A DNA stretch of 34,669 bases from the UHGV virus genome UHGV-0090561. One strand, written 5' to 3'. The notes under the pieces were generated by a model. It saw nothing but the letters and a program-made list of their open reading frames with translations. It made no database searches and had not been told where the DNA came from. Below are positions 6,612 to 33,733 of the stretch, piece by piece. The translations under genes and the position numbers were made by a program. Source of the stretch: a virus. The stretch's first letter is position 1. Each line of letters starts with the position of its first letter.

Positions 6612-7402
6612 TTACGCCAGTTGTACGGACACGAACTCATCAGGGTCAGCCAGCAGCATCAGCGGTGCTGACTGAATCATGGTGAACTCACGCGCAGGAT
6701 CGCCGGTGGTCACCCAGTTTTTCGGGTAACGGGCAGAGGCGTTAATGCCTTCGCGCTGTGCGTCCGCATCCTGAATGCAGCCATAGGTGCGCAGACCGCG
6801 TGCCTGAGTGTTCCCCAGCACCATCGTGTTGTCCGGCAGGAAGTTCTTTTTGACGCCGTTTTCCACGTACTGCCCGGAATACACGACGATGGCCACATCG
6901 CCATACATCCCCTTATAGGACACCGCTTTACCCAGGTCTTTCACCGCTGTCTCCAGCTCGGAATGAGAGCCGCGACGGGTATCCAGCTTCTCCTTGACGG
7001 CTTTGAAGGAACGGAACAGCGCCCAGCCTTTCGGATCAAACACGATGATATTCACTACACCGCTGGCGTTCAGCGCGTAGGCTTCGATATCGTCGGTCGG
7101 GTCATACGTGGACTTGTCACGCTTGCTCCACTCCGTGCCACCGGACTGTGTGATGTTGTTCGCCGCACTGCGGCCCATATCCACCTCAACCGGATCGAAG
7201 GCTTCACCGGTCATGGTGTATTTGCCCTTAAGCACGGCAGAAACTGCCTGCATCTCTTCGACCTGGGCAATGGCCAGCTCTTCGTCACGCATGTTCTGCA
7301 TGATGATGCGACGGCGACGGTAAGCCGGGTCCGCCAGATTCTGTGGATCTTCATCCGGCAGGCGACGCAGGGTCATCTGCGGATTCACCTCATGCTTGGG
7401 CT
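6612..7402 (-). pseudogene. E: Major capsid protein E, 3' fragment (codons from PKHEVNPQ to end), separated from its 5' part by the insertion
   Basis: Translation ...PKHEVNPQMTLRRLPDEDPQNLADPAYRRRR...VSVQLA matches the C-terminal ~260 aa of lambda gpE; no start codon, and a TAG lies immediately upstream at the junction. Confidence 0.93.
7393..7402. repeat. Left copy of 10-bp direct repeat TGCTTGGGCT (putative att core / target duplication)
   Basis: Identical 10-mer at 18591-18600; both copies lie inside E coding sequence (AAG CCC AAG CA on the coding strand). Confidence 0.8.
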
Positions 7403-8440
7403 ACATGAGTCAATGACGTAAGTATGTGAATGATATAAGAGGAAAAATAGAGCATAATCTCTACCAGAATGACTATGTTGCAATACATGCTGCAATACAC
7501 AGAAATGAATTTACATGCTGTTCGATTATTAAGTTTCATAGCCGAGTTGCAGATCAGCAACTCACCCACCAGCCCAGATAATTTCATTTTCACACTGGAG
7601 GACTCCTTGAAATCAAGGAATCATAATCCTGCCATGTCATCATTCCGGCCTTCTCAGATTTGAGGTGTGCGGAAAAAATAAACGCTATTAAGCAGCTATG
7701 TGGGTACTGCACTTTTTGGGTAGTGCAACTATCCAGCTTCCTCAAATTAAGGATTGTGGAAAAATCAATGAGTCAGGTTTATTCCCCCGTTCTCCCCCAA
7801 TGGGGGTTTTCGAAAGAATCAATGGGTTAGGCCATCGTGCAAATTTGCACTCTGCCAGCCAACGCAATTTTGCGTTATCAGTCCTCAGATGTGAGGGATG
7901 TAGCCAGCTTTTCCCCCAGTGGGGATTATCCAGTTACCGACGGTTTAACCGCCTGTGCCAGCACAACGAAAGAATTTGCGGGTAGCTTTAAACTACTCAC
8001 AACATCCCATCTTACAGGCCGTGCCTTTCTAACTTTTTACAATGCAATAAGTCAGGTAACGCTATGCGTTCCACCGTGTACACCGCGCCAGTAAAACCCC
8101 CGGATTCGTGGTTTTCCTGAATATCAGGAATCTACCGCCGTAACCGCTCCTGCTTCTTCCACTGGTAAGTGTTTTTCGCGCTCTCCCTTCGCTACATGGA
8201 ACGGCGACGATATGGCAACAACTCCAGAACTCTGGTGCGTATGTTGCACATATCCACGCCGTTAAGCTCGATACCGTCACGGCGCATAACCTCAAGCACC
8301 ACACGCGCGTAATTTTCAGCGGTCGTGCTGTCCGACTGCGTTGTCTCCTGTTTGCCTGCTGCCTGATAGATATCACTGGAAACGTGCCGGATAAGTTCCA
8401 GCAGCAGAAAGGCGAGTTGCTACCGCGCAATTGTTGAACA

Positions 8441-8647
8441 AAAAACGAGAAAGGAAACGACACTGTCCAAAAAACACGTTTTCAGCACCTGCTGTTTCCT
8501 TTCTTTTTAGGGGGTATTTATAATAAAAACATTAAGTTACGGCAAAGAAGAACGGAAACGCCTTAAACCGGAAAATTTTCATAAATAGCGAAAACCCGCG
8601 CGCCTTCCGCCCCGTAACGCTCCGGATCACCGGAAAGGACCCGCTCA
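8441..8647. other. cos site of the satellite (cosN/cosB-like), near-identical to the prophage cos
   Basis: About 200 bp aligns almost base-for-base with 24798-25000, including the inverted GAAAGGAAACGAC / CGTTTCCTTTC terminase R-site-like repeats and the segment GCGAAAACCCGCGCGCCTTCCGCCCCGTAACG. Confidence 0.75.
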
Positions 8648-8730
8648 AAAAAAGCGGCCACTGACGTGATTGTTTATGTTCCATGAGCGACAAAACCGCC
8701 CGGAGGCGGTTTCACATAAAACATTTTGCA

Positions 8731-9378
8731 TCAGCGACCAATCACCACAACCTGACCACCATCACCTTCATCTGCCGTGCTGATCTCCTGAGATACCACT
8801 CGCGACCCCACACGCATTTCACCGTACAGAACGGGCAGAACATTGCCCTGGGCAACCATGTTATCCAGTGACGAGAAATACGTGTTCTGCTTACCGTTAT
8901 CCGTTGTCTGTGTGCGGGGAGTTCTGGCTTTCGGTGCCAGCATCTGCGCCACACCACCGAGCACCATACTGGCACCCGCACTATACATTCCTGTAATTGC
9001 TGCCGCTCCTAGCCAACCAGCGGGGTTCCACCACGCCACCGCAATCAGCGCCGCCCCCAGCACGGTCTGAAACACACCGCCACTTTTAGCGCCAGCAAGA
9101 CGCGGTACGATGTGGATCACAGCACCATTCGCCAGCGGCTCATTAAGACGGGCTGATAATTCATTTTCGCCTGCATCCCGCCCGGCAATCCGTACCTGAT
9201 ACCAACCGTCGCTCAGTTTCTGACGAAACGACGGTAGCTGTGTGGACAGAGCTCGGATGGCTTCAGCCCCCGTTTTTACACGAAGGTCGATGCGGTGGCC
9301 GAATCGTTGCAAATCCCCGTAAAGGCAGATTCGTGCCATGCCCGATGACGCCAGAGGGAGTGTGTGCGTCGTTGCCAT
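8731..9378 (-). CDS. Tail assembly protein I-like protein (lambda gpI family)
   Basis: 215-aa ORF MATTHTLPLASSGMARICLYGDLQRFG...QGNVLPVLYGEMRVGSRVVSQEISTADEGDGGQVVVIGR resembles lambda gpI as I recall it (N and C termini conserved, middle divergent); Shine-Dalgarno upstream. Confidence 0.65.
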   Translation of the reverse strand: MATTHTLPLASSGMARICLYGDLQRFGHRIDLRVKTGAEAIRALSTQLPSFRQKLSDGWYQVRIAGRDAGENELSARLNEPLANGAVIHIVPRLAGAKSGGVFQTVLGAALIAVAWWNPAGWLGAAAITGMYSAGASMVLGGVAQMLAPKARTPRTQTTDNGKQNTYFSSLDNMVAQGNVLPVLYGEMRVGSRVVSQEISTADEGDGGQVVVIGR

Positions 9379-9418
9379 TTGTCGGTATACCTCTCTCGTT
9401 TGCTCTGTTGTTCAGAAA

Positions 9419-9802
9419 TTAGCAGATCAACTTATAGCGTCCATTCCGAGCATTGCGGCGTACACGTTCAATCTTGAGGCATAGCGCCGCATCTGGCTTT
9501 TTTGGGACTGGTACACGGCAATATTCAGAAGCGCGAGGAATATTATTTATCCAGTCAATCACTTCGCTTAAATACCAGGCCTTACGCCCTTCCGTAACCT
9601 GCACACGCTCCGGGAACTCTCCACGGGCCTCAAGGTTTAGCAGTGTACGACGACTCAGGGTTGTAAGTTCCATTACCTGATTCATATCAACAAGACGCTC
9701 GCTTAAACGCATTTTGTCAGCGATAGCTTTTAATTCCTCTACAGCTGGATTTGGGTACATAATTTCGGCAATTGGCTTAAGGTCATTGTAATGATTCTGC
9801 AT
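9419..9802 (-). CDS. AlpA-like helix-turn-helix protein with N-terminal extension
   Basis: 127-aa ORF with GGGGGA Shine-Dalgarno; C-terminal half TTLSRRTLLNLEARGEFPERVQVTEGRKAWYLSEVIDWI resembles the AlpA/excisionase-type HTH. Confidence 0.6.
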   Translation of the reverse strand: MQNHYNDLKPIAEIMYPNPAVEELKAIADKMRLSERLVDMNQVMELTTLSRRTLLNLEARGEFPERVQVTEGRKAWYLSEVIDWINNIPRASEYCRVPVPKKPDAALCLKIERVRRNARNGRYKLIC

Positions 9803-9813
9803 TGTATCCCCCT

Positions 9814-10155
9814 TTACACACGAGCCAGCGGCTGAACAGAAATACCTGAGCCAACAAACGCTGCAACCTTTACTGACAGTTCTTTTACAGACTCAGGCCA
9901 GTTCAGAGCATCAACATTTAAGACACCTGTCTTATAGACCTGAGCCTGTGTTTTTTTCGCGGTGTCGATTTGTACAGCGGATACATAAACCGCTTTACCT
10001 ACGCTCGTACCATCCCATACCACCAGTGCACCTGTTGCATCTTCCTGCATCAGTGGCGTAAATGCAGGAATTACCCCTTTATTAGCTGAAAATATCCCCA
10101 GCGTAGTAACCAGTGCTTCAGTGCCAGCCATGAGTTCAGTGTAATGAGTAGCCAT
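9814..10155 (-). CDS. Head decoration protein, lambda gpD family (divergent)
   Basis: 113 aa; aligns by eye with lambda gpD (FTPLMQEDATGALVVWDGTSVG vs [22 protein letters not shown]; AFVGSGISV vs [10 protein letters not shown]); strong Shine-Dalgarno AAGGGGGAG. Confidence 0.7.
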   Translation of the reverse strand: MATHYTELMAGTEALVTTLGIFSANKGVIPAFTPLMQEDATGALVVWDGTSVGKAVYVSAVQIDTAKKTQAQVYKTGVLNVDALNWPESVKELSVKVAAFVGSGISVQPLARV

Positions 10156-10164
10156 TGCTCCCCC

Positions 10165-11205
10165 TTAGCCAATGCGAACGGTAACAAAACGATTGATGCG
10201 AGCCGGTATTGGCTGTGGTGCTGAATGTGTCTGCACATATTCAATAGCCGGATCACCAGGCACAATATAGTTTTTCGGTGCAAGTTCGGCTTTAGTCAGC
10301 CCCATTCGGATTAGCTCCGGGTCCTGAATACCGCCATAGGCGACAATCCCCTGAAGAGCCGTATTGCCAAGCACCATCAAATCAGGATCAAGGAAATGTT
10401 TTTCAGTTCCGTCCTCGTCGGTATAACGCCCGCTGTAAACAACAATCGCAACATCGCCCATATACCCTTTAAAACTCACCGAATCACCAAGGTCTTTAAG
10501 GGCCGTTTCCAGTTCGGAATTAGAACCACGACGGGTATCCAGAGCCTCTTTTATCGCTCTGAATGAACGGTATTTCTTCCATACATTACCGCCCATAATG
10601 ATGATATTAGTGACGCCCTCACTAAATTCTGCGTAGTTCTCAATATCATCATTTGGATCAAAAGTTTCTTTATCCTTACCTGACCACTCAGCACCGCCAG
10701 ACTGAGTGATGATATTTTGTGGTTTAATATTCCAGTCCAGCTCATAACGTTCAATACCATCGCCCTCAATGATATTTTTCCCCGTTGTGATTGCCTGAAC
10801 GGCAAGCCATTCAATACGTGCACGAATAGCTTTAGCTTGATTTACAATCGCCTGTTTAACTTTAATATTACGCGCCCCAAAAGCATTGTATTGCTCAGGT
10901 GATACACCAGCAGGGCGCACAGCTAACTTATTTGGATCAATGCTGCTTTTCGGCTTCATATAGCCTGGACGAATTGTTTTTGATTCGTACCCTTCGTCAC
11001 GTGAAACTTTACTACCCACCATAGGAGAACAAAACGCTGCAATTGGGATATTTGGATCGTCGATTGTATCAAGAATAATATCGCGCGATTCAAACATTAC
11101 CGAGCGAGTAAAAAACAAACGGGTAAACAACGCATTTAGTTGTTTTTGTACATCTACAGCATTAACCACCTGTACAAGCTGGGTAGGCGAATATAAATCA
11201 ACCAT
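10165..11205 (-). CDS. Major capsid protein, lambda gpE family (divergent satellite copy)
   Basis: About 346 aa from the ATG with AAGAGG Shine-Dalgarno; central block NIITQSGGAEWSGKDKETFDPNDDIENYA...AIKEALDTRRGSNSELETALKDLG...GDVAIVVYSG is clearly homologous to lambda gpE but far more diverged than the prophage copy. Confidence 0.85.
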   Translation of the reverse strand: MVDLYSPTQLVQVVNAVDVQKQLNALFTRLFFTRSVMFESRDIILDTIDDPNIPIAAFCSPMVGSKVSRDEGYESKTIRPGYMKPKSSIDPNKLAVRPAGVSPEQYNAFGARNIKVKQAIVNQAKAIRARIEWLAVQAITTGKNIIEGDGIERYELDWNIKPQNIITQSGGAEWSGKDKETFDPNDDIENYAEFSEGVTNIIIMGGNVWKKYRSFRAIKEALDTRRGSNSELETALKDLGDSVSFKGYMGDVAIVVYSGRYTDEDGTEKHFLDPDLMVLGNTALQGIVAYGGIQDPELIRMGLTKAELAPKNYIVPGDPAIEYVQTHSAPQPIPARINRFVTVRIG

Positions 11206-11422
11206 ACGCATCCTCTTTGCATTCATTAAAAATAATTGTGGATATATGCTATCACCGATATTTGTCATGCGAATACATGCAACCGAGTGCAATGTTGTAT
11301 AAAGTTTTGGGATGACAACTTCAGCGCGGATAATTAGTGTTAATATCTTCACTCCCTTTGGTCGGGATTTATGTAGCATGCCGGAAAATTTATTTTTTTC
11401 CGGCCTTTTTTATTGGCAATAT

Positions 11423-11872
11423 TTAAAACGGAATATCATCTCCCCATTGCTCATTATCTCCCACTGGTGGATGGCTTCCTTGCTGATCTGCCTGTTGTTT
11501 TGCTCTGTTCAGTGCGTCAGTAGCCTGCCCCTGTTGGCCTTTTTTGCCGCCCGGTCGCACCGTTCGCGCACTGATTACGCTGTCTGCGATAACCTGCCAG
11601 CCCTGCCGCGTTTCACCGTTCTGTCCAGTCCACTGACTCACCTGCATGTTACCCGCCACGCTCAGGAGTTCGCCTTTGTGATGCTTTGCCAGCGCGTCGG
11701 CTTGTCTGCCAAACGCCAGAACAGATAACCACATCGTCGCCTGACCGTCATCCGACTGGCTGCAGGGCAGTGATACCGCCATACGCGCCAGCGTCATGGG
11801 GGTGCCCTTGCTGGTCTGTTTTGTCTGCGGGGCGTCCACCAGCCGCCCGTAAGCTGCTATTTGCGCCGTCAT
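11423..11872 (-). CDS. ssb: Single-stranded DNA-binding protein
   Basis: 149-aa ORF with OB-fold-like N-terminus, Gly/Gln-rich linker and the characteristic acidic tail ending DDIPF. Confidence 0.85.
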   Translation of the reverse strand: MTAQIAAYGRLVDAPQTKQTSKGTPMTLARMAVSLPCSQSDDGQATMWLSVLAFGRQADALAKHHKGELLSVAGNMQVSQWTGQNGETRQGWQVIADSVISARTVRPGGKKGQQGQATDALNRAKQQADQQGSHPPVGDNEQWGDDIPF

Positions 11873-12126
11873 GCTGCCTGCTCTCCGGACTTAATATTGA
11901 TGGTTGTCACTTCCTCCGCTTCGGCAATCTCCCGTTCGGTCAGCGTGGCAAAGTTTGCAGCCGCCGTTGTCATGAATGCGCTTATCAGTTCGGGATGTGC
12001 TTTCGCGTATCCTTCCCCGGCGTTGCGGTCTATTGCCTTAATCGCCACCCTTAGCCAGTGTTCAGCCATATCAAGGGCGCGGTAATGTGGCTTTATATGT
12101 TTGTTCAGTTTTCCTGATGTGTGCAT
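11869..12126 (-). CDS. Hypothetical protein (satellite, between ori and ssb)
   Basis: 85-aa ORF whose stop overlaps the ssb start (operon-like); no recognisable family. Confidence 0.45.
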   Translation of the reverse strand: MHTSGKLNKHIKPHYRALDMAEHWLRVAIKAIDRNAGEGYAKAHPELISAFMTTAAANFATLTEREIAEAEEVTTINIKSGEQAA

Positions 12127-12169
12127 TTTTATTTTTACCCCCTCGTTTAAAAAGTTTTTTGTGCACCAC

Positions 12170-12404
12170 CACCTTGTCTACCTTGTCTACCTGATTAGTT
12201 ATCAGGCCAGTAATGGCGCGGGTTTCAGGGAGGTAGACAGCCCCAAATAGCTGTCTACCTCATCTCTACCCGTATCCTTACCTGTCTACAAAAATGGGTA
12301 GATAAGGTAGATAACAGGTAGACAGTGAAAAATAGTTATCTACCTGCATTAATACATTGAAATAAAAGTATTTTCTTTCAGTCAGGTAGACAAGGTAGAT
12401 AACC
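12170..12404. repeat. Iteron array (putative satellite replication origin)
   Basis: About 10 copies of GGTAGA(C/T)A / its reverse complement TGTCTACC in both orientations, immediately downstream of the primase-helicase gene. Confidence 0.8.
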
Positions 12405-12415
12405 ATTGCCATTTT

Positions 12416-14167
12416 TTATAAAAACGCATCGCAATCATCAGTAGTCGTTGCGTTGGTCTGCGTGACTCCCTTAACTTTTCGCGTAATATATTCATATCCG
12501 TAAACTTTCGCCGCTGACCTCATAGCCTTTCCGAACTCATTCACGCTCAAACATTTCCCCTTTCCTGTGTATGCCATGAAGGCCATATAGACACGGTAAA
12601 GGCTGTTTCTGGTCGTGTACTTCACGGAGTCACCACCACCGCCCATCATTAGCCCACGAGCTTCCTCCAGAAACTCAAGCGCCGCGCAAAGCTCAACAAC
12701 TGGATCCGTTTGCTGCTTTATTGCCAGAGCTTCATCACCGTCACGCTGTTCCAGTAGTAAAGCCCTTGCCTTTTCAGGGTCAGCAAAGTTAGCCAGCAAG
12801 CGGCGGATAATTACGGGGATTTCTGCCGCTATCTTTTCCGGTAATTCCTTGTCTTTTTCGTCCTCCCTTACAATGTTGTCGAACCGGAAAATCACCCGAC
12901 GGCGTGACACACCTCCGGCCCGTTCGGTAAAGATCATCGGGTCGTTATTGGTTGCCAGTACCACCGCCCTTATTATCGTCGTGAATCGCTTCTCATATTT
13001 CGGATTGATTTCAACGGGATCGCCTCCCGTGATTTTCTTGATGCCCGTGCCTTCCCCCGTATATTTCGGCTGATCGGCAAGGACGATAAGACGACTCCCG
13101 ACAACCTGCGCGCGCCCTCCTGCATCATCGAGTGATGTCATCTCTGCGCTTACGGTGTTCTGTTTGCCTGCAAGCAGGGTGGCAATATGGGTAAATGTAC
13201 TCTTACCGCTTCCCCCGTCTCCGGTGGCCTCAATGAACATCTGCCAGTCGTAGCGGTTCGCCATAATCATGTATAACGCGGCACATATACGCATCATCTT
13301 GCGCGGGTCTTTTCCTGCAGCATGTTCAAGCCATTTATGGAAATTTGGCGCATTATCGCGGATGTTTTCCCCTGCTACTGGTGGCGTGTACTCAATACCA
13401 TTGTGCGTGGTGCTCCAGTGCTCCGGCGAGTGCGGAGAAAATTCCCCCGTTTTCAGATTAAGCACACCATTAGTGAACGGTAGCAAATCACCGGACGGCT
13501 CCCCCATGGGGGCTGCAATAACTTTTAACGCTTCCACGGCGTTATTGATTACACGTTTGCTGAACGTGGCCCTGTGCTCTGAATAGATCGCCACCATTTC
13601 GCGGCTCAGCTCCATTGTGCTGACCGGACACCATACCCCGCCGCGCCATACGTGGACGATTTCACTTTCTGCATGAACACACACACCATCAAAGCGATCG
13701 GCAAGTAGTTGTGCACGTTCACTGTCTGCCATCTGTGAAAGTTGCGCCTTTTGCTTCGTCGGAAGATTAAGCACCAGACTTTCCCCACGCTCGCATTCCT
13801 CTTTGAGTCGCGGCAACTGGTCGGATAAATCCACTGGGCTGGTGTCAGTAATCCCCGCGTATTCGTGTACGGTCTTCACTCCAGCCACAGCCAGTAACGT
13901 AACAATCTGCGTCATGCTGTGCTCTGTGATATGTCCTGCGCGGTAAACACGCACACACTGACGATCTTCATCAATGATCCGGTAATCGGTGATATTTTTC
14001 AGTTGCTCATCAGCCAGCACGACAGGCGGCACATCGTCGGCGGCAATATGTTTACCCGCCCATTCCTGCCACTCTTTCGCATGGCTCCACGCATCACTAC
14101 CTGCAAAGATGATTACCTCTGTCAGTCTGTCGCGTGGCTGTTTTTTTAAGTTCGGTGCCAGTTTCAT
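12416..14167 (-). CDS. Primase-helicase (P4-family primase C-terminal / SF3 helicase-like replication initiator)
   Basis: 583-aa ORF with Walker A GDGGSGKST and downstream NTPase-like motifs typical of P4 alpha-type / PICI Pri-Rep proteins; followed by iterons. Confidence 0.8.
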   Translation of the reverse strand: MKLAPNLKKQPRDRLTEVIIFAGSDAWSHAKEWQEWAGKHIAADDVPPVVLADEQLKNITDYRIIDEDRQCVRVYRAGHITEHSMTQIVTLLAVAGVKTVHEYAGITDTSPVDLSDQLPRLKEECERGESLVLNLPTKQKAQLSQMADSERAQLLADRFDGVCVHAESEIVHVWRGGVWCPVSTMELSREMVAIYSEHRATFSKRVINNAVEALKVIAAPMGEPSGDLLPFTNGVLNLKTGEFSPHSPEHWSTTHNGIEYTPPVAGENIRDNAPNFHKWLEHAAGKDPRKMMRICAALYMIMANRYDWQMFIEATGDGGSGKSTFTHIATLLAGKQNTVSAEMTSLDDAGGRAQVVGSRLIVLADQPKYTGEGTGIKKITGGDPVEINPKYEKRFTTIIRAVVLATNNDPMIFTERAGGVSRRRVIFRFDNIVREDEKDKELPEKIAAEIPVIIRRLLANFADPEKARALLLEQRDGDEALAIKQQTDPVVELCAALEFLEEARGLMMGGGGDSVKYTTRNSLYRVYMAFMAYTGKGKCLSVNEFGKAMRSAAKVYGYEYITRKVKGVTQTNATTTDDCDAFL

Positions 14168-14463
14168 TTTTTGCCCCTGAATGCGTTAATCATGCTTTTC
14201 ATTTTCTGGATGTTTCCCCGCGCTTTTTCCCTGCTGGTGGGCTTACTGCGGGGTGCGGCATATACCAGGGAAAAATCACGCCGGAACTGATAAACAGGCA
14301 TCACACAGTCATAGCTATACCCCTCACGGCGGTAAGTGATGCGCCGTTCTGCCACGCCTTTAATCGTTACCGTGCCGCCGTATTTATCGCGGTAAATATC
14401 GCCGTTCATAAATTCAGGCCGAGCGGGGCCGCTGGCAATAAAGCCAGAATTTTTCATTTCCAT
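14164..14463 (-). CDS. Hypothetical protein (upstream of primase, ATGA overlap)
   Basis: 99-aa ORF translationally coupled to the primase start; no recognised family. Confidence 0.5.
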   Translation of the reverse strand: MEMKNSGFIASGPARPEFMNGDIYRDKYGGTVTIKGVAERRITYRREGYSYDCVMPVYQFRRDFSLVYAAPRSKPTSREKARGNIQKMKSMINAFRGKK

Positions 14464-14480
14464 ATTATTTATTCTTCGAC

Positions 14481-14702
14481 TTAACTCGACTTATTTGATA
14501 GCAGGGCACTATTTATTGCGTCATTGAGTTTTTCTGCTGCTTCATCAATAAGTGACAACAGGCCATAAGCAATATTTGCATCTTCATTGTCATTTATGCA
14601 ATCAAGCCACATATTTAATATTGCTTTTGCTGAATTATTTAAAGTTAATGAACTCTCTGCACATGCTAACAATTTAAAAAAGACTTCCCGTTCTGTATTC
14701 AT
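14481..14702 (-). CDS. Hypothetical small protein
   Basis: 73-aa ORF in a tightly packed co-directional array; AT-rich. Confidence 0.4.
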   Translation of the reverse strand: MNTEREVFFKLLACAESSLTLNNSAKAILNMWLDCINDNEDANIAYGLLSLIDEAAEKLNDAINSALLSNKSS

Positions 14703-14894
14703 TTAATCCCCCACCAGCTTACTTTCTTCCTCAATCAGGAAACTAGCGACACTTCCCGAAAGGCGCGCCAGTAGGCTCGCCAGCGCGGATATATCAGCAT
14801 CTGTAATTTTGTTCGGGTATACCTCAAGAAGGCGGCAAATAATTTCTGTTTGGTGCGCACGTTCAGCGGCTTCGTGTAATGTGATTTCCTGCAT
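14703..14894 (-). CDS. Hypothetical small protein
   Basis: 63-aa ORF abutting its neighbours without gaps. Confidence 0.4.
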   Translation of the reverse strand: MQEITLHEAAERAHQTEIICRLLEVYPNKITDADISALASLLARLSGSVASFLIEEESKLVGD

Positions 14895-15079
14895 TAATGC
14901 ACCTCTTTTAATTCATACACTGCTGAAATAATGACTTGTGATAAGCCATATTCTGATGATTCGCTTCTCACCGCAGCAATAGCCGTCTGAACATTAACAG
15001 CCTTCACGTTCTGAGTGATACCAATTGTGTGGCCTCGTGGGTTAACAGCTCGGGCAAATACACGGAAGGTTTTAAGCAC
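14894..15079 (-). CDS. Hypothetical small protein
   Basis: 61-aa ORF overlapping its neighbours by a few nt. Confidence 0.4.
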   Translation of the reverse strand: MLKTFRVFARAVNPRGHTIGITQNVKAVNVQTAIAAVRSESSEYGLSQVIISAVYELKEVH

Positions 15080-15275
15080 GGCACACCTCCTGACGAATAC
15101 GGGCAGCGAATACCATCACGCAGCCAGTTGGGGATTGCTGGCGGGCTTCCTGTTCGCTGATGGCCTCGATGGTAATCATGCGCGGTTGTGCCGTACTCAA
15201 GGCGATAAAACGCCAGATGTATTTATTCAGGTTGTGCGAGTTCCGCCCTTGCGGGTGTGTGGTATGATTTCTCAT
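15072..15275 (-). CDS. Hypothetical small protein (first gene of the leftward satellite operon)
   Basis: About 67 aa from the internal ATG preceded by a GAGG Shine-Dalgarno; the upstream part of the track ORF is not supported. Confidence 0.4.
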   Translation of the reverse strand: MRNHTTHPQGRNSHNLNKYIWRFIALSTAQPRMITIEAISEQEARQQSPTGCVMVFAARIRQEVCRA

Positions 15276-15474
15276 AGCTACCTCGATACTGTTGCTATCG
15301 TTGGTGGTTAGAAGCCCGTTGGTGTTCCTAGCACCTTCGGGCTTTGCTTTTTTAAGTGCCCCCGTGTTAAGGTGGTCACCTAACAATGAAAAGGCTAATT
15401 CAATAGGTGGTCACTTGTCAACGATCAAACGCGATAAAAGTCCTAAGGGTGATGGGCAATCTCCACAATTCAGA

Positions 15475-15606
15475 ATGCGAATTTCTCCAGAGCTAAAAGA
15501 GCAATTCGACAAAGAAGCGCAGAGCGACGGCATAAGCCTAGCCAACTGGCTTAAAGAATTAGGGCGCAAAGAGCTGCTACGGCGCGGTATTGAACCAAAA
15601 GGATAA
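15475..15606 (+). CDS. Ribbon-helix-helix (Arc/CopG-like) DNA-binding protein, putative
   Basis: 43-aa product MRISPELKEQFDKEAQSDGISLANWLKELGRKELLRRGIEPKG fits the RHH pattern; weak Shine-Dalgarno, so the start is uncertain. Confidence 0.45.
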   Translation: MRISPELKEQFDKEAQSDGISLANWLKELGRKELLRRGIEPKG

Positions 15607-15633
15607 GAATAATTGAAGTCAAGGAGCTAACAC

Positions 15634-15990
15634 ATGAAATACGAATTCTTCGCAACAAGTAGCAGTAGTTTGGATGTATACATAGTCACTGTATCAAACG
15701 ATTCTGGCTCGCTAATCATGACTTGTAATTGTCCAGCAGGAAGTAAAGGTATTCTATGTAGACACCGTAAAGCTTTAATTACCGGAAAAATCCGCGGTAT
15801 ATTCACTCCCCCAAGAAGGAATAATCCTGAAAAATTACAAGAAGCTATAAATTTAATAGCCACATATGGCATAGATAAAACATTAAAGTTGTACACTGAT
15901 GAGTTAGAACGAGCAGAACAGACTTGGATAAGTGTTCGCGATAATTTGAGAGCAATGATAAACGCTCTTGTTGAACCACCTAAATATTGA
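15634..15990 (+). CDS. SWIM zinc-finger protein, small
   Basis: 118-aa ORF with AAGGAG Shine-Dalgarno; motif CNCPAGSKGILCRH matches the SWIM CxCxnCxH signature; followed by an intrinsic terminator. Confidence 0.7.
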   Translation: MKYEFFATSSSSLDVYIVTVSNDSGSLIMTCNCPAGSKGILCRHRKALITGKIRGIFTPPRRNNPEKLQEAINLIATYGIDKTLKLYTDELERAEQTWISVRDNLRAMINALVEPPKY

Positions 15991-16056
15991 ACTGTTCACA
16001 TTGCCTATCAGGCGATAACCTCGTATTCTGATTAAGGCTAACTATATACTCACATT

Positions 16057-16080
16057 GGCGACCAATTCTGGTCGCCTTTA
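16057..16080 (+). terminator. Rho-independent terminator after the SWIM gene
   Basis: GGCGACCA-attc-TGGTCGCC hairpin followed by TTTA; position hand-counted. Confidence 0.6.
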
Positions 16081-16121
16081 TCCACCATTTTTATAATATC
16101 ATAGATTAAAAGTGTTAATCC

Positions 16122-16952
16122 TTACCCCCTGAATGGAATTGATGAGGATTTAATTTCCACAGAACTAAATCCTCTTGAATCCAAGAACATTTTTATACCA
16201 GCCTCAATAAAATCATAATCGTTTGTCGGGCCAATTGTAATGCTTTTAATTGGTAACTTTCTATTATCTTTATTATCAATGATGATATAAGGGATGATCC
16301 CATTATTATTTATTCTGAAGTGCACATCTGGCATTTGCATCCACGGAGTAAATACCAATCTAAATTCATTCTCTTCGATAAAACTAGGATGTTTAAAAAA
16401 TGGGATGTATTTAGATATAAATTGATACGTAGAGACCATTGTTACAAAATGATCATTCATTTCTTTAATATTAATACCATTACAAGAAAAAAACTCCCCC
16501 AACTCCTTACTCATCTTAGTAATATCGTTATTATTTGAATATATAACATCATGTGCAACACAATTTAAATAAATATTTTGAGAAAAGCTCACAAGTTCAT
16601 CCGCATCAAACTCAATGCAAACACCCTGTTTATTTCCGTAACCTCTCCACTGACTTAACTTATCGTTTTCCTTACAAAAAGAGATGCTATAAACATGTTT
16701 ATCAATCCCTTTTTCTTTTTGTAACCTCCCTTTCTCATACATGTCAAGAGACTTGAGCAAAATAGTTTTCTTATCTTTTGGAATGATATTATCATCAACT
16801 ATTTTAATTGTATTTCGAAAGCATTCACATCCATGGTTAGACTCCTCTTTATCATTTAAGAAATATATGTTTGTAGCCCATAAAGAATTAGAGTCTAATA
16901 TACCTTTCAAACCAAAAAGATCTGTATAATGAAATATAGCCACAATGCCCAC
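16122..16952 (-). CDS. DUF2971-like protein (satellite cargo, function unknown)
   Basis: 276-aa ORF, markedly AT-rich versus its neighbours; N-terminal FHYTD...YFLNDKEE resembles the DUF2971 motif as I recall it (not verified by HMM); GTG start 7 nt after the alpA stop. Confidence 0.55.
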   Translation of the reverse strand: MGIVAIFHYTDLFGLKGILDSNSLWATNIYFLNDKEESNHGCECFRNTIKIVDDNIIPKDKKTILLKSLDMYEKGRLQKEKGIDKHVYSISFCKENDKLSQWRGYGNKQGVCIEFDADELVSFSQNIYLNCVAHDVIYSNNNDITKMSKELGEFFSCNGINIKEMNDHFVTMVSTYQFISKYIPFFKHPSFIEENEFRLVFTPWMQMPDVHFRINNNGIIPYIIIDNKDNRKLPIKSITIGPTNDYDFIEAGIKMFLDSRGFSSVEIKSSSIPFRG

Positions 16953-16959
16953 CTAATAG

Positions 16960-17190
16960 TTAAGTTGTTTCCCACTCACCTCGAATCCATGCCTGCACTT
17001 CTGAAAGACGATATGCAACAGCAGTGGAACCAATCTTGATCCGCTTAGGAAATTTTCCTTCCTTCTCCAGCTTCCAGCGTGTGCTGTTCGCAAGAGTGGT
17101 TAGCTCCCGACATTCTTTCTCACGGATCATTCGGTCAATGTTAGGAATGTACTCCAGACCCTTTTTATCAACAATTGCCATTTTTTTCAT
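16960..17190 (-). CDS. alpA: AlpA-family transcriptional regulator / excisionase-like protein
   Basis: 76-aa ORF immediately downstream of int; ...RELTTLANSTRWKLEKEGKFPKRIKIGSTAVAYRLSEVQAWI is the AlpA HTH pattern. Confidence 0.8.
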   Translation of the reverse strand: MKKMAIVDKKGLEYIPNIDRMIREKECRELTTLANSTRWKLEKEGKFPKRIKIGSTAVAYRLSEVQAWIRGEWETT

Positions 17191-17191
17191 G

Positions 17192-18427
17192 CTAACCAGC
17201 CTTTTGTTTGAGGATTGTCACTTTTGAATCAGCAGCTGCGATGCTATTGAGATATGTAGTCCAGAGTTCCAGAGCATCCAGTTTTTTAGCCATAAACTTA
17301 CTCCGGTTGTAAACACCTGCCACGCCAGGTAGCGCATGGCCTAACAGTTGTTCTACTACATAAAATTCAACACCGAGATCACTTAGATGAGTAGATAGCG
17401 TTCTTCTAAGGTCGTGTAGTGACCATTGTTTTTCATGGCCCAAACGTTTACCGATTTTCCCCCCAATCTTGCTTACGCTTTCTCTAATTCGCAGACTTCC
17501 CAGCACATAACCAGTATGTTTTGTCTCTTCGTGAACATCCGTTACCCACTGTCGTAGAATTTCAGGTACTGGTCTGACGATTTCAACACCAGTTTTTGAG
17601 TGATCTTTTGGCACAGTCCAAACCCAACTTTCGAGATCCCATTCGCTCCATTCTGATAATCGGGCTTCACTCATTCGACATCCAAATACTGTACAAAGCA
17701 CAAACATTTTTCGCGTGTATTCAGACATTAGTTTTAAATCAGGCTCGACAAAAATTGCCTTCCAGAGCTGGCCCAGTTCGGCTTCATCCAGAACCCGATC
17801 CCGCTTACCTGCAATCTGCCCCACATCACTCATGCGCAAATCCTTTAAAGCATCACACGTCGCGTACTGGCGTACCCGACAAAAACGAAGAGCTAATTTA
17901 GTGTCAGAAAAAACATACGCCGCCATAACTGGTGCATTACGTTTAATTCGGTCAAAACAGTCCAGCCATTCATATAGGTGAGTGTCATTTACGGGCAAAT
18001 GACCGATATAGGGAAAGATATGCTTTCGAAATCTGCCAAGCGTTACAGCATGAGTTTTACGACGCACCTTACAGTAATTTTCATACCAGTAATTTAGTGC
18101 ATCCTCCACTGTGACCGGCTTTAAGCGTTCTTCAGCCTGAATCTTAATCTGGATACGCGGATCACGTTTGTCAGCCAACCAAGCACGGCACTCGTCGCGC
18201 TTTTCCCTTGCCTGTTTGAGTGACATATCAGGATATTTACCCAACGTTAGCCAGACCGGAGCAGCCCGGCCACCTGCTAACCTGTAGAAGAAAACAAAGC
18301 TCACAGCCCCCTTGGTACTCACACGAATAGAAAGCCCCTTTCCATCAGCAATGGTGATCTGCTTTTCTCTGGGTTTCCCCAGATATCCTTTAAGTGCTTT
18401 GTCGCTCAGTTTGTTCTCGCCAGCCAT
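17192..18427 (-). CDS. int: Tyrosine recombinase (phage integrase family)
   Basis: About 411 aa from the internal ATG (MAGENKLSDK...); C-terminal catalytic region with HDLRRT...LLGH...Y-type motifs; adjacent to the right junction and direct repeat. Confidence 0.88.
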   Translation of the reverse strand: MAGENKLSDKALKGYLGKPREKQITIADGKGLSIRVSTKGAVSFVFFYRLAGGRAAPVWLTLGKYPDMSLKQAREKRDECRAWLADKRDPRIQIKIQAEERLKPVTVEDALNYWYENYCKVRRKTHAVTLGRFRKHIFPYIGHLPVNDTHLYEWLDCFDRIKRNAPVMAAYVFSDTKLALRFCRVRQYATCDALKDLRMSDVGQIAGKRDRVLDEAELGQLWKAIFVEPDLKLMSEYTRKMFVLCTVFGCRMSEARLSEWSEWDLESWVWTVPKDHSKTGVEIVRPVPEILRQWVTDVHEETKHTGYVLGSLRIRESVSKIGGKIGKRLGHEKQWSLHDLRRTLSTHLSDLGVEFYVVEQLLGHALPGVAGVYNRSKFMAKKLDALELWTTYLNSIAAADSKVTILKQKAG

Positions 18428-18589
18428 TTTTAGCCCCAAAAAGCAATACAAGCTGCAATACAGAGATGATTGCAACACACAGATAACGAGGAAAATCCAG
18501 TGAAAGCGCCAGATAAACTTATTCTTTATTATCAAAAGATTAAGTGTAAAAACCAGCAACTACACGAAAGCCTCAGAAAGCCATGCTAA

Positions 18590-18835
18590 GTGCTTGGGCT
18601 TGACATATCCCGGTGTAAATTCAGAGGTGGAGCCGCCACGGGAGCGGATAACCTCACCGGAAACAATCGGCGAAACGTACAGCGCCATGTTTACCAGTCC
18701 CGGAATTTGTGAGAGATAGACTTTCTCCGTGGTGAAGGGATAGCTCTCACGGAAAAAGAGACGCAGAAACAGCGGATCAAACTTAAATTTCTTCTCATTT
18801 GCCGCCAGCAGCTGGGCGGTTGTGTACATCGACAT
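18590..18835 (-). pseudogene. E: Major capsid protein E, 5' fragment (first ~81 codons), reading into the insertion
   Basis: MSMYTTAQLLAANEKKFKFDPLFLRLFFRESYPFTTEKVYLSQIPGLVNMALYVSPIVSGEVIRSRGGSTSEFTPGYVKPKH matches the lambda gpE N-terminus, then diverges (LAWLSEAFV, stop) at the junction. Confidence 0.93.
18591..18600. repeat. Right copy of 10-bp direct repeat TGCTTGGGCT
   Basis: Identical to 7393-7402; lies at the codons KPKH of E. Confidence 0.8.
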
Positions 18836-24233: not shown

Positions 24234-24259
<26 letters not shown>

Positions 24260-24779
24260 TCAGCAACCCCGGTATCAGTTCATCCAGCGCGGCTGCTTTG
24301 TTCATGGCTTTGATGATATCCCGTTTCAGGAAATCAACATGTCGGTTTTCCAGTTCCGGAAAACGCCGCTGCACCGACAGGGGGATCCCGTCGAGAATAC
24401 TGGCAATTTCACCTGCGATCCGCGACAGCACGAAAGTACAGAATGCGGTTTCCACCACTTCAGCGGAGTCTCTGGCATTCTTCAGCTCCTGTGCGTCGGC
24501 CTGCGCACGCGTAAGTCGATGGCGTTCGTACTCAATAGTCCCTGGCTGCAGATCTGTCTCGCTGGCCTGCCGCAGTTCTTCAACCTCCCGGCGCAGCTTT
24601 TCGTTCTCAATTTCAGCATCCCTTTCGGCATACCATTTTATGACGGTGGCAGAGTCATAAAGCACCTCATTACCCTTCCCACCGCCTCGCAGAACGGGCA
24701 TTCCCTGCTCCTGCCAGTTCTGAATGGTACGGATACTCGCACCGAAAATGTCAGCCAGCTGCTTTTTGTTGACTTCCAT
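24234..24779 (-). CDS. Nu1: Terminase small subunit Nu1
   Basis: 181-aa ORF MEVNKKQLADIFGASIRTIQNWQEQGMPVLRGGGKGNEVLYDSA... matches lambda gpNu1; adjacent to cos. Confidence 0.96.
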
Positions 24780-24797
24780 TGTTCATTCCACGGACAA

Positions 24798-25000
24798 AAA
24801 CAGAGAAAGGAAACGACAGAGGCCAAAAAGCCCGTTTTCAGCACCTGTCGTTTCCTTTCTTTTCAGAGGGTGTTTTAAATAAAAACATTAAGTTACGGCG
24901 AAGAAGAACGGAAACGCCTTAAACCGGAAAATTTTCATAAATAGCGAAAACCCGCGCGCCTTCCGCCCCGTAACGTTCTGGATCGCCGGAAAGGACCCGA
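24798..25000. other. Prophage cos region (cosB R-site-like repeats and cosN-like segment)
   Basis: Reverse complement resembles the lambda left-end region (AAACGACAGGTG.../CGTTTCCTTTCT... R sites, IHF-like AT-rich stretch), but the cosN-equivalent differs from lambda GGGCGGCGACCT; duplicated at 8441-8647. Confidence 0.75.
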
Positions 25001-32099: not shown

Positions 32100-32717
32100 T
32101 TAAAAAAGCGATAAGCTTTGCCCCGAATTCATCGGTAGTGGAGAGAAAGTAACATCACGTATTTGCTCCCCGAGCAGAAGAAACCTATCCAAGGGTAGCG
32201 GCGGTATCGTAGCAAACCCTGAAAGCCCCTTCTTTCTTGCAACATCTCTCGCATCCATAAGGATACGACCTAACACGTTCATACCATAAAAGTTACCTTC
32301 GGAGTCTTTACTAGCCCCCCAAAATTGGTCCTTCTCTGAGTGCTCAACAATGTCATGCTCTCCTGTGCTATCCAGGAGCGCGAAAAACGATTCCCAGTTC
32401 TGGCAAAGCTTAACGCAGACACACCATTTCATTACCGAAACTCGATTTTTTTCCCAACCTGCACGGGTTTTGGCTTCGAAAGATCTGGCAGTTTGTTTAG
32501 CTTCATAAGGGTTGCCTTGGGTAATAATAGCCTTTTGGATATCTGGATAGTCTGGATATCGGCATGCTTGGTAAAGAATTTCACTCGATTGAATGGGTAT
32601 ACCATTAACTAAGAGCGGATATCCTTTGGCCATGTTGGAAAGCCCCCCCCATTTCTCGGTGGTTTTCCTGAAAGAAACTGTGTTGTGAAACAGGTATAGT
32701 CTATAGCTCATGATCAC
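32100..32717 (-). CDS. NADAR-domain (YbiA-like, DUF1768) protein, putative
   Basis: 205-aa ORF; N-terminal FRKTTEKWGGLSNMAKGYP...SSEILYQACRY fits the NADAR N-terminal pattern as I recall it; ATGA overlap with the upstream gene. Confidence 0.55.
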   Translation of the reverse strand: MIMSYRLYLFHNTVSFRKTTEKWGGLSNMAKGYPLLVNGIPIQSSEILYQACRYPDYPDIQKAIITQGNPYEAKQTARSFEAKTRAGWEKNRVSVMKWCVCVKLCQNWESFFALLDSTGEHDIVEHSEKDQFWGASKDSEGNFYGMNVLGRILMDARDVARKKGLSGFATIPPLPLDRFLLLGEQIRDVTFSPLPMNSGQSLSLF

Positions 32718-33733
32718 CGATTATACACATTACGCTTCATAAGTGGATACCAACAATCCAGAGCTCTATTTCCCGTTCGAAGATAAGTTCCCCACCAGTA
32801 CGCTAGAGGGGTATTATTGGGGCAGTTTCTGAAAGTAAAGATAGTTCCACCAAACCCAACACCATTGAAAGTTGAAAAGCCTAAAGGTTTTATAACATCA
32901 GAAGGATTTTGACTCTGACTAAGGATATCAAACCCAACTTTTGTCATAATTGCTTCAAAACGATCTCGTCTCTGCTCATTAGGGAAAAATTTATTCGCGA
33001 CGTAACCGTCACGATATGTTCCTAAATAATGTACTTGACCGTCAGCCCATTCAGGTATTGATACACTTTGCGCTTTTGGCCAAAAAACCTCAGAACTCGA
33101 ACTGTTTCGGCGTTGATTTTCAACAACTGCAAACTCACCAACACCAACGCAAACTGAAATATTCCTATCAGCAAATTTTCGTTCAAGTTGGTTTTTTATC
33201 TTCCATGCTGAATACGTGTGCCCGCCTAAAAAGTACACCAATATTGTAATATTTTGGAGTTCAAAGTGCTCAATAAACCAAGTTAAATCATTGATTGCCT
33301 TAGCTCCTGAGAATGAAACATCGTCAAAGTAAATAAATTCACGGAATGAACTAACTCTTTGACGTTGTGACAGTCTGGTCACAACGTTGAATTCTTCCAC
33401 ACAATCTTCTCGAAGCAAATCCAAAAACTCAGATTGACTGGTGCCTTGGTTCTGGATATCGAGAAACGCTGCGGTTTGAAAGAACCTTTCATTTTGCTCA
33501 TCATTGGCGATACTACTAATAACTCTGCGATAGTCGCTCTCAGAGAAGTATCCAATCCCCATTAATCGGTCCGTTTCCTCTAAGACAAATCGCCTATCGG
33601 TTAACTCAAATTGATTAATCCATCGATTAACATGATCAATGCTCATGCCACCTTGAGGAGGGTTTCGATAGTCATTTAGTTTAGTAGCAATTTGCCCCAT
33701 AAGATCACGATCTGTAACATTGCTATAACACAT
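32714..33733 (-). CDS. Phosphoribosyltransferase-like protein (type I PRTase PRPP-binding motif), function unknown
   Basis: 339-aa ORF, AT-rich; motif FIYFDDVSFSGAKAI resembles the PRPP-binding loop (hydrophobic x4, DD, then small residues and G); flanking domains unrecognised. Confidence 0.5.
   Translation of the reverse strand: MCYSNVTDRDLMGQIATKLNDYRNPPQGGMSIDHVNRWINQFELTDRRFVLEETDRLMGIGYFSESDYRRVISSIANDEQNERFFQTAAFLDIQNQGTSQSEFLDLLREDCVEEFNVVTRLSQRQRVSSFREFIYFDDVSFSGAKAINDLTWFIEHFELQNITILVYFLGGHTYSAWKIKNQLERKFADRNISVCVGVGEFAVVENQRRNSSSSEVFWPKAQSVSIPEWADGQVHYLGTYRDGYVANKFFPNEQRRDRFEAIMTKVGFDILSQSQNPSDVIKPLGFSTFNGVGFGGTIFTFRNCPNNTPLAYWWGTYLRTGNRALDCWYPLMKRNVYNR

Follow-up and report, generated by a model that had tools for sequence, protein, structure and literature searches.

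A lambda-type major capsid gene E lies in two separate pieces within the 34.7-kb stretch of viral DNA analysed here (UHGV-0090561, 34,669 nucleotides, referred to as the window), which raises the question of what interrupts this gene and whether it can be restored. The gene is split at codon ~80, and the same 10 bp, TGCTTGGGCT, are found at both break points. The two junctions comprise the following features (coordinates, strand, description):

6612–7402, minus: 3' fragment of the helper major capsid gene E (~codon 79 to stop; Pfam Phage_cap_E), including the attR-side core
7393–7402, no strand: 10-bp identity block (core) of the int-distal junction, TGCTTGGGCT (AGCCCAAGCA in gene orientation)
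18590–18835, minus: 5' fragment of helper gene E, codons 1–82 (translation and Pfam)
18591–18600, no strand: 10-bp identity block (core) at the int-proximal junction

Translated on the minus strand, 18590–18835 gives residues 1–82 of a lambda-type E, the last of them being ...TPGYVKPKH; the original prediction had located this piece correctly, with a length of 81 instead of 82 codons. Past the core, the interrupted N fragment continues for 9 unrelated codons and then reaches a stop. In Pfam searches, the N fragment matched positions 1–78 of Phage_cap_E and the ORF at 6612–7388 (minus strand) matched positions 94–328, placing the insertion at about position 80 of the profile, among lambda late genes. 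TGCTTGGGCT occurs exactly twice in the window (7393–7402 and 18591–18600). A repeated 10-mer is by itself unremarkable in 34.7 kb; this one carries weight since each copy coincides precisely with a break point of the split gene. The sequences flanking the core on either side are unrelated.

Excision was simulated in silico by removing the 11,188-bp insert together with one copy of the repeat. When joined, the segments 6612–7402 and 18601–18835 gave an open frame (1026 nt, 341 codons; ...TPGYVKPKHEVNPQ...), which aligned without gaps and over its full length to lambda E (J02459 6135–7160) with 98.0% identity. The predicted junction of the restored gene reads ...GTCAAGCCCAAGCATGAGGTG... (also written ...GGATATGTCAAGCCCAAGCATGAGGTGAAT...), and the predicted attP junction reads ...CATGTAGCCCAAGCACTTAGC... 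(also written ...TGACTCATGTAGCCCAAGCACTTAGCATGG...). The original prediction of an E gene in two pieces with identical 10-bp repeats at its junctions, whose joining restores the frame, was thus borne out, including in the comparison with an uninterrupted lambda E that it had proposed as a check.

The insert is very probably a phage-inducible chromosomal island (PICI) that is embedded in a helper (HE-PICI), of the published 11capE type, residing at the site E:Phage_cap_E:80 of a lambdoid prophage. The founding HE-PICI, Eco567.11capE of E. coli NRG857c, and its site were described by Tommasini, Mageeney & Williams (NAR Genom Bioinform 2023; PMC10111431), whose survey comprised 491 HE-PICIs at 14 late-gene sites, 201 of them at E:Phage_cap_E:80, and whose supplement contains 220 HE-PICI genotypes. 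The core agcccaagca (AGCCCAAGCA) is listed for E_Phage_cap_E_80 elements in supplementary file 3 of that paper, and the window core fits the identity block a[ag]cc[cg]aagca of this site group at both junctions. The original prediction had proposed that a satellite integrated site-specifically into its presumed helper's capsid gene, in agreement with the 10-bp block and the restoration of E by precise excision; the accompanying remark that no such attachment site was known to be described does not hold, since the site is published with 201 instances. The phenomenon is real, had been read correctly and has been known since 2023 (PMC10111431). The element contains the following features:

7403–18590, minus: PICI-type satellite embedded in the helper, 11,188 bp with one core copy counted, oriented like the helper late operon
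7403–8437, no strand: variable left-end region without a convincing intact ORF
8438–8643, minus: satellite copy of the helper cos region, including cosN-proximal sequence (91% identity)
8731–9378, minus: captured lambdoid tail tip assembly gene I (Pfam Lambda_tail_I, 5.7e-24)
9419–9802, minus: second AlpA-family HTH regulator, late zone (Phage_AlpA, 1.3e-8)
9814–10155, minus: satellite head decoration protein, gpD-like (HDPD, 4e-15)
10165–11205, minus: the satellite's own major capsid protein, gpE-like, 346 aa (Phage_cap_E, 4.5e-41)
11423–11872, minus: single-strand DNA-binding protein (SSB, 5.1e-15)
12416–14167, minus: primase/replication protein (D5_N, DUF5906 and Pox_D5)
14164–15386, minus: small early ORFs (DUF4222, three hypotheticals and an ORF at an Icd-like position, the latter taken from RefSeq annotations of related elements)
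15634–15990, plus: SWIM zinc-finger protein in the variable cargo zone after alpA (15634–16952)
16122–16952, minus: DUF2971 protein in the same variable cargo zone
16960–17190, minus: AlpA, excisionase/regulator (Phage_AlpA, 3e-15)
17192–18427, minus: tyrosine integrase, 411 aa from the ATG at 18427 (Arm-DNA-bind_3 and Phage_integrase)

The integrase and alpA genes lie just inside the right junction, as had been predicted. Together with the primase gene they are encoded on the minus strand, like E, D, C, B, A and Nu1 of the helper, and the int, alpA, primase, SSB and capsid ORFs of the window copy are all intact. The zones follow each other in the order Integration (int, alpA), a second zone containing DUF2971, SWIM and the small ORFs, Replication (primase, SSB) and Late (capsid, D-like, I, cos). 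Because neither a Bro-N domain protein (Pfam, window copy) nor a C4/isrK immunity RNA (Rfam gathering thresholds, whole window) was found, only other cargo stands in for the Bro zone. C4/isrK RNAs have been reported in some HE-PICIs; the Rfam scan of the window gave no hit of any kind at these thresholds. Portal, terminase, tail-tube and lysis genes were absent from the element ORFs (Pfam). The satellite E-like and D-like proteins share 42% and 38% identity with helper E and D, respectively; these two genes and the copy of the helper cos site had been overlooked in the original prediction. Besides the cos copy, an ORF search of 7403–8730 returned only a remnant, lacking its start, of a 93-aa protein (~8192–8414, minus strand) that is intact in strain GN06489. 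Gene I is preceded by a 3' remnant of K reaching ~9420, and this K/I region shows ~90% DNA identity to K/I of lambdoid phages. A PADLOC scan of the DUF2971, SWIM, gpI-like, HTH and primase proteins returned only weak matches to candidate families (E 1e-3 to 5e-5), which were not counted as evidence for a defence system.

The source type of the satellite cos copy is found in the helper prophage itself:

24794–24999, minus: helper prophage cos region upstream of Nu1

The two regions are 91% identical over 206 bp, and both contain the 56-bp lambda left-end sequence with zero mismatches. A cos copy was also reported for 11capE (PMC10111431). Nu1 of the helper is located at 24234–24779. Apart from the split E, nothing is missing from the helper late operon in the window (Nu1, A, portal B, protease C, D, V and H), and each of these genes has its full length. 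The prophage ends lie outside the window.

Two further features were identified at the inner sides of the cores:

7480–7499, minus: doubled arm motif TGTATTGCAgcaTGTATTGC; distance to the core centre 82.5 bp
18443–18462, minus: doubled arm motif TGTATTGCAgctTGTATTGC; distance to the core centre 133.5 bp

The doubled TGTATTGC motif matches the window at these two minus-strand positions only, with 0.01 matches expected by chance. The attP of HE-PICIs carries a doubled tgTGTATTGCantgTGTATTGCa in two co-oriented copies, positioned 81±2 and 132±2 bp on either side of the centre (PMC10111431), and the distances of 82.5 and 133.5 bp fit these values. In the window copy, the two cores are the same and each arm motif is perfect.

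Compared with Eco567.11capE of strain NRG857c, the window element targets the same codon of a lambda-type E and likewise carries a 10-bp identity block, which is AACCCAAGCA in NRG857c and AGCCCAAGCA in the window and other published members. The integrases are identical at 408 of 411 aa and the satellite capsid proteins at 344 of 346 (99% each). The doubled TGTATTGC arm motifs, their spacing, the co-orientation with the late operon and the cos copy are also shared, as is the backbone order int-alpA-...-primase-SSB-capsid-decoration-HTH. The two elements differ only in their accessory modules: alpA is followed by a hypothetical and a YlcI-like gene in NRG857c but by DUF2971 and SWIM in the window, and the distal end carries DUF262 and HEPN in NRG857c but K'/I and a degenerate region in the window.

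Experimental evidence of precise excision comes only from 11capE of NRG857c, for which qPCR and deep sequencing revealed the products attB and attP 2 h after addition of mitomycin C, once the prophage-satellite composite had excised and replicated (PMC10111431). Given the 99% integrase identity and the intact att architecture, we infer that the window copy would excise as well. The satellite's own tyrosine integrase, of the P4/PICI clade, would have inserted the element in the same orientation as the late operon, leaving helper E split for as long as the element is integrated, with an attP that provides no replacement sequence for E. By analogy with the NRG857c experiments, prophage induction would first cause the composite to excise and replicate, after which Int and AlpA would bring about recombination between the two 10-bp cores, which would free a circle of 11.2 kb and make the 341-codon E whole again. 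Helper late transcription would probably read into int and alpA. The helper terminase is predicted to package the satellite via the latter's copy of the helper cos, as supported by its 91% identity to the helper's own site, and the satellite E-like and D-like proteins may contribute to or modify capsids. Embedding would couple the satellite to the helper in cis, both in replication and in late transcription, with the helper capsid gene held hostage until the satellite departs.

It is quite improbable that the HE-PICI in the window is instead a fossil, trapped in a defective prophage and no longer able to excise or transfer, with E inactivated for good. Many HE-PICI helpers look truncated, and virions of helper or satellite could not be recovered by the 2023 authors (PMC10111431); the start-less gene remnant in the left end (7403–8437) and the location of the prophage ends outside the window are compatible with such decay. 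Intact int, alpA, primase, SSB and capsid ORFs, identical cores with perfect arm motifs and full-length helper late genes in the window argue against it.

The split gene might also have arisen as an assembly or chimera artefact joining unrelated contigs, a reading in favour of which nothing was found. The original prediction had suggested a search of other genomes for the integrase next to a split E, and an 801-bp junction query (≥80% coverage) retrieved the integrase/split-E junction from at least 171 of 5,426 complete E. coli genomes. Since the same junction recurs in this many closed genomes from independent projects, an artefact is ruled out for practical purposes. In five genomes the junction is near-identical and aligns base for base, RefSeq annotates both E fragments in relatives as partial pseudogenes flanking the island, and excision products were observed experimentally in NRG857c (PMC10111431).

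Insertion by homologous recombination between the satellite E-like gene and helper E, rather than by the integrase, can be dismissed from the anatomy of the junctions: the satellite homologue is 42% identical and includes one 144-bp stretch with 74% DNA similarity to helper E, but the junctions lie at the element termini beside int and outside the satellite capsid gene, which is intact at 10165–11205, lacks the att core and reads AGCCGAAAAG at the corresponding stretch, while the flanks past the 10-bp core are unrelated and the arm motifs are placed at fixed spacing around it.

Gram-negative PICIs such as EcCICFT073 are similar to the window element in size (~11 kb), in the presence of int, alpA and primase, in the absence of tail and lysis genes and in cos-type packaging by a lambdoid helper, which is predicted for the window element. 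Classical PICIs, however, occupy chromosomal genes at a distance from the helper, with which they interact only in trans, whereas the window satellite lies inside the helper capsid gene. Its own major capsid protein is a trait shared with cf-PICIs. These carry a full head module composed of capsid, protease, portal, connectors and small terminase. Membership in this group was rejected, as the window element has only the E-like and D-like genes, with no portal, protease or terS/terminase among its ORFs. P4-like satellites share only the type of integrase, AlpA and primase with it, and this assignment was likewise rejected, as the window lacks C4/isrK RNA at the Rfam gathering score and sid, psu and delta proteins (Pfam). 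In regulated gene integrity elements such as skin in sigK of B. subtilis, a gene is also interrupted and reconstituted by programmed excision, but in the window the interrupted gene is part of a different mobile element, and it is presumably the satellite that benefits; the comparison with gene integrity elements was made previously (PMC10111431).

The window adds one further instance with different accessory cargo to the known family, and its value lies in confirming that a reading from sequence only recovered a real, recently described phenomenon rather than in a discovery. The element as a whole was absent from the complete E. coli genomes searched, the best match showing 84% coverage and 98.6% identity. 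The copy might represent an uncatalogued E:80 HE-PICI mosaic (DUF2971 and SWIM after alpA, K'/I beside cos, decayed distal end) in which one cargo module may have a function undescribed in HE-PICIs, such as interfering with tail-tip assembly of the helper or defending against phages, a view that we regard as rather unlikely. Parts of this cargo recur elsewhere: the pair of SWIM and DUF2971 genes is also found in strain LR-50, and the element of strain 2015C-4136CT1 carries the same gene I.

The DNA around the insert is a lambdoid prophage (the helper), in which Nu1, A, B, C, D, V, H, Q and P are full-length and capsid gene E is split by an 11,188-bp island of the PICI type. The translated N-terminal fragment (18590-18835, minus strand) reads MSMYTT...TPGYVKPKH and corresponds to Pfam Phage_cap_E positions 1-78, and the ORF at 6612-7388 on the same strand to positions 94-328. 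The window contains exactly two copies of the 10-bp core TGCTTGGGCT, one at 7393-7402 and the other at 18591-18600. Repeated 10-mers are common in 34.7 kb; it is the position of both copies exactly at the break points of one gene that is significant. Beyond the core, the junction flanks are unrelated to each other. Removal of 7403-18600 in silico yielded a 1026-nt open frame (341 codons) containing ...TPGYVKPKHEVNPQ..., which aligned with lambda gene E (J02459 6135-7160) over its full length, gap-free and with 98.0% identity. As judged from these junctions, integration occurred at the core within E, and core-to-core recombination would restore E exactly. The original prediction of a split E with identical 10-bp repeats at its break points was thus borne out, and its mechanistic reading, a satellite integrated in E whose excision restores the gene, was correct; the N-terminal fragment lay where predicted and comprised 82 rather than 81 codons.

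The finding is real, but the attachment site, which had been put forward as possibly undescribed, has already been published, as have the family, how widespread it is and the excision of its elements (PMC10111431). Tommasini, Mageeney and Williams (NAR Genom Bioinform 2023) described Eco567.11capE of E. coli NRG857c, an 11-kb PICI that disrupts the lambda-type E of an icd-integrated prophage and has a 10-bp identity block and its own capsid gene. They coined the names "helper-embedded PICI" (HE-PICI) for the configuration and E:Phage_cap_E:80 for the site, and counted 491 HE-PICIs across 14 late-gene sites, of which 201 were located at this one (PMC10111431). In NRG857c, a strain other than that of the window, qPCR and deep sequencing after mitomycin C treatment revealed composite excision and replication first, followed by precise 11capE excision (PMC10111431); by analogy, the same order may apply here. 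No virions were obtained by these authors (PMC10111431), and no HE-PICI is known to be transferred.

The window element closely resembles 11capE, with 408/411 identical residues in the integrase and 344/346 in the capsid protein. The core 'agcccaagca' is listed for several E_Phage_cap_E_80 elements in the supplementary table of PMC10111431. The diagnostic doubled motif tgTGTATTGCantgTGTATTGCa, reported to flank the attP centre on its two sides at distances of 81+/-2 and 132+/-2 bp (PMC10111431), has exactly two matches in the window; they lie on the minus strand, and their distances from the core centres are 82.5 and 133.5 bp. At the int-side junction, five genomes (L001-L005) aligned nearly base for base. 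A third, degenerate half-site, TGTGTTGCA (18465-18480, minus strand), located 7 bp upstream of the int-side doubled TGTATTGC motif, was unchanged in all five. Between these junctions and the supplement of PMC10111431, the core varied at two synonymous positions (AAGCCCAAGCA, AAACCCAAGCA, AAGCCGAAGCA); wobble changes in the E codons for K-P-K are therefore either tolerated by the integrase or matched by co-variation in it.

The major genes of the insert all lie on the minus strand, as do E and the helper late operon:

Features of the insert, in order from the int-side junction
17192-18427, minus: tyrosine integrase (Arm-DNA-bind_3 + Phage_integrase)
16960-17190, minus: AlpA
16122-16952, minus: DUF2971 protein
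15634-15990, plus: SWIM zinc-finger protein, divergent
between SWIM/DUF2971 and primase: several small ORFs, one of them DUF4222
12416-14167, minus: primase (D5_N/DUF5906)
11423-11872, minus: SSB
10165-11205, minus: satellite capsid protein (Phage_cap_E), 42% identical to restored helper E
9814-10155, minus: satellite decoration protein (HDPD), 38% identical to helper D
9419-9802, minus: second AlpA-family HTH protein
8731-9378, minus: Lambda_tail_I protein

Portal, protease, terminase, tail-tube and lysis genes were absent from the insert's genes. The only HE-PICI feature not clearly recognizable is the "Bro zone", which in the window copy holds DUF2971, SWIM and small ORFs; no Bro-N domain was found in the element with Pfam, nor did any C4/isrK RNA reach the Rfam gathering score. 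SWIM and DUF2971 (15634-16952) fill the variable zone after alpA, the usual place of Bro-network genes in the published family. This zone gave only weak PADLOC matches (PDC-S62, PDC-S31), and the pair was also present in the element of strain LR-50.

It is improbable that the window's strain carries a "fossil" copy that has lost excision, given that int and alpA are intact and the arm motifs perfect. Homologous recombination via the satellite capsid gene was ruled out by the junction anatomy. That gene lacks the core and carries AGCCGAAAAG at the homologous position, in agreement with PMC10111431. Helper late transcription would read through into int and alpA, helper terminase could package the satellite at its own cos, the satellite E and D homologues may have a role in capsids, and helper yield may be lowered.

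It has been described that satellite and helper have a cos-like segment in common and that late genes are captured by the satellite, in its late zone (PMC10111431). In the window, a cos-region copy within the element (8438-8643) shares 91% identity with 24794-24999, the segment directly preceding helper Nu1, and the cosN-proximal sequence is the same in both. Directly adjoining the satellite copy, 8644-9420 (minus strand) contains tail-tip assembly gene I and a 3' stub of K. Because of its ~90% DNA identity to the tail genes of free lambdoid phages, it represents a captured fragment and is an instance of the capture proposed in PMC10111431. The captured I recurs in strains 2015C-4136CT1, RM14723 and Z1323HEC0355. 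No convincing intact gene was found in 7403-8437. The start-less, truncated homologue at 8133-8414 (minus strand) of the 93-aa hypothetical protein WP_001588505.1, intact in strain GN06489, suggests decay of the distal cargo region.

Recurrence was assessed with an 801-bp query that runs from the start of int across the junction and the N-terminal E fragment to the end of D. At a coverage of at least 80%, the int/split-E junction was detected in 171 of 5,426 complete E. coli genomes, and in every genome inspected both E pieces are annotated in RefSeq as partial pseudogenes flanking the island. An assembly artefact was ruled out by this recurrence in closed genomes. At the distal junction, most matches listed extended only 113 bp into the element, past the arm motif, and then diverged; the distal cargo is therefore variable. 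It consists of DUF262 and HEPN in KW21 and NRG857c, terS and a hypothetical gene in GN06489, and an abortive-infection gene in 2015C-4136CT1. The entire window element was found in none of the 5,426 genomes (best match 84% coverage, 98.6% identity). All that the window adds is another mosaic of cargo in an element already known.

In the nin region of the helper, between P and Q (32100-33733, minus strand), two overlapping genes encode a 339-aa PRTase-CE protein (Pfam 1e-39; PADLOC PRTase_III-A 1.9e-10) and a 205-aa NADAR-domain protein (Pfam 5.7e-23; PADLOC PDC-M42C 4e-8), a pair resembling cargo for defence or counter-defence carried by the prophage. A gene located between Q and the lysis region and oriented opposite to the neighbouring phage genes (28308-29111, plus strand) encodes a 267-aa DUF3800 protein that strongly matches PDC-M04A, a candidate defence family of PADLOC (7.7e-35).
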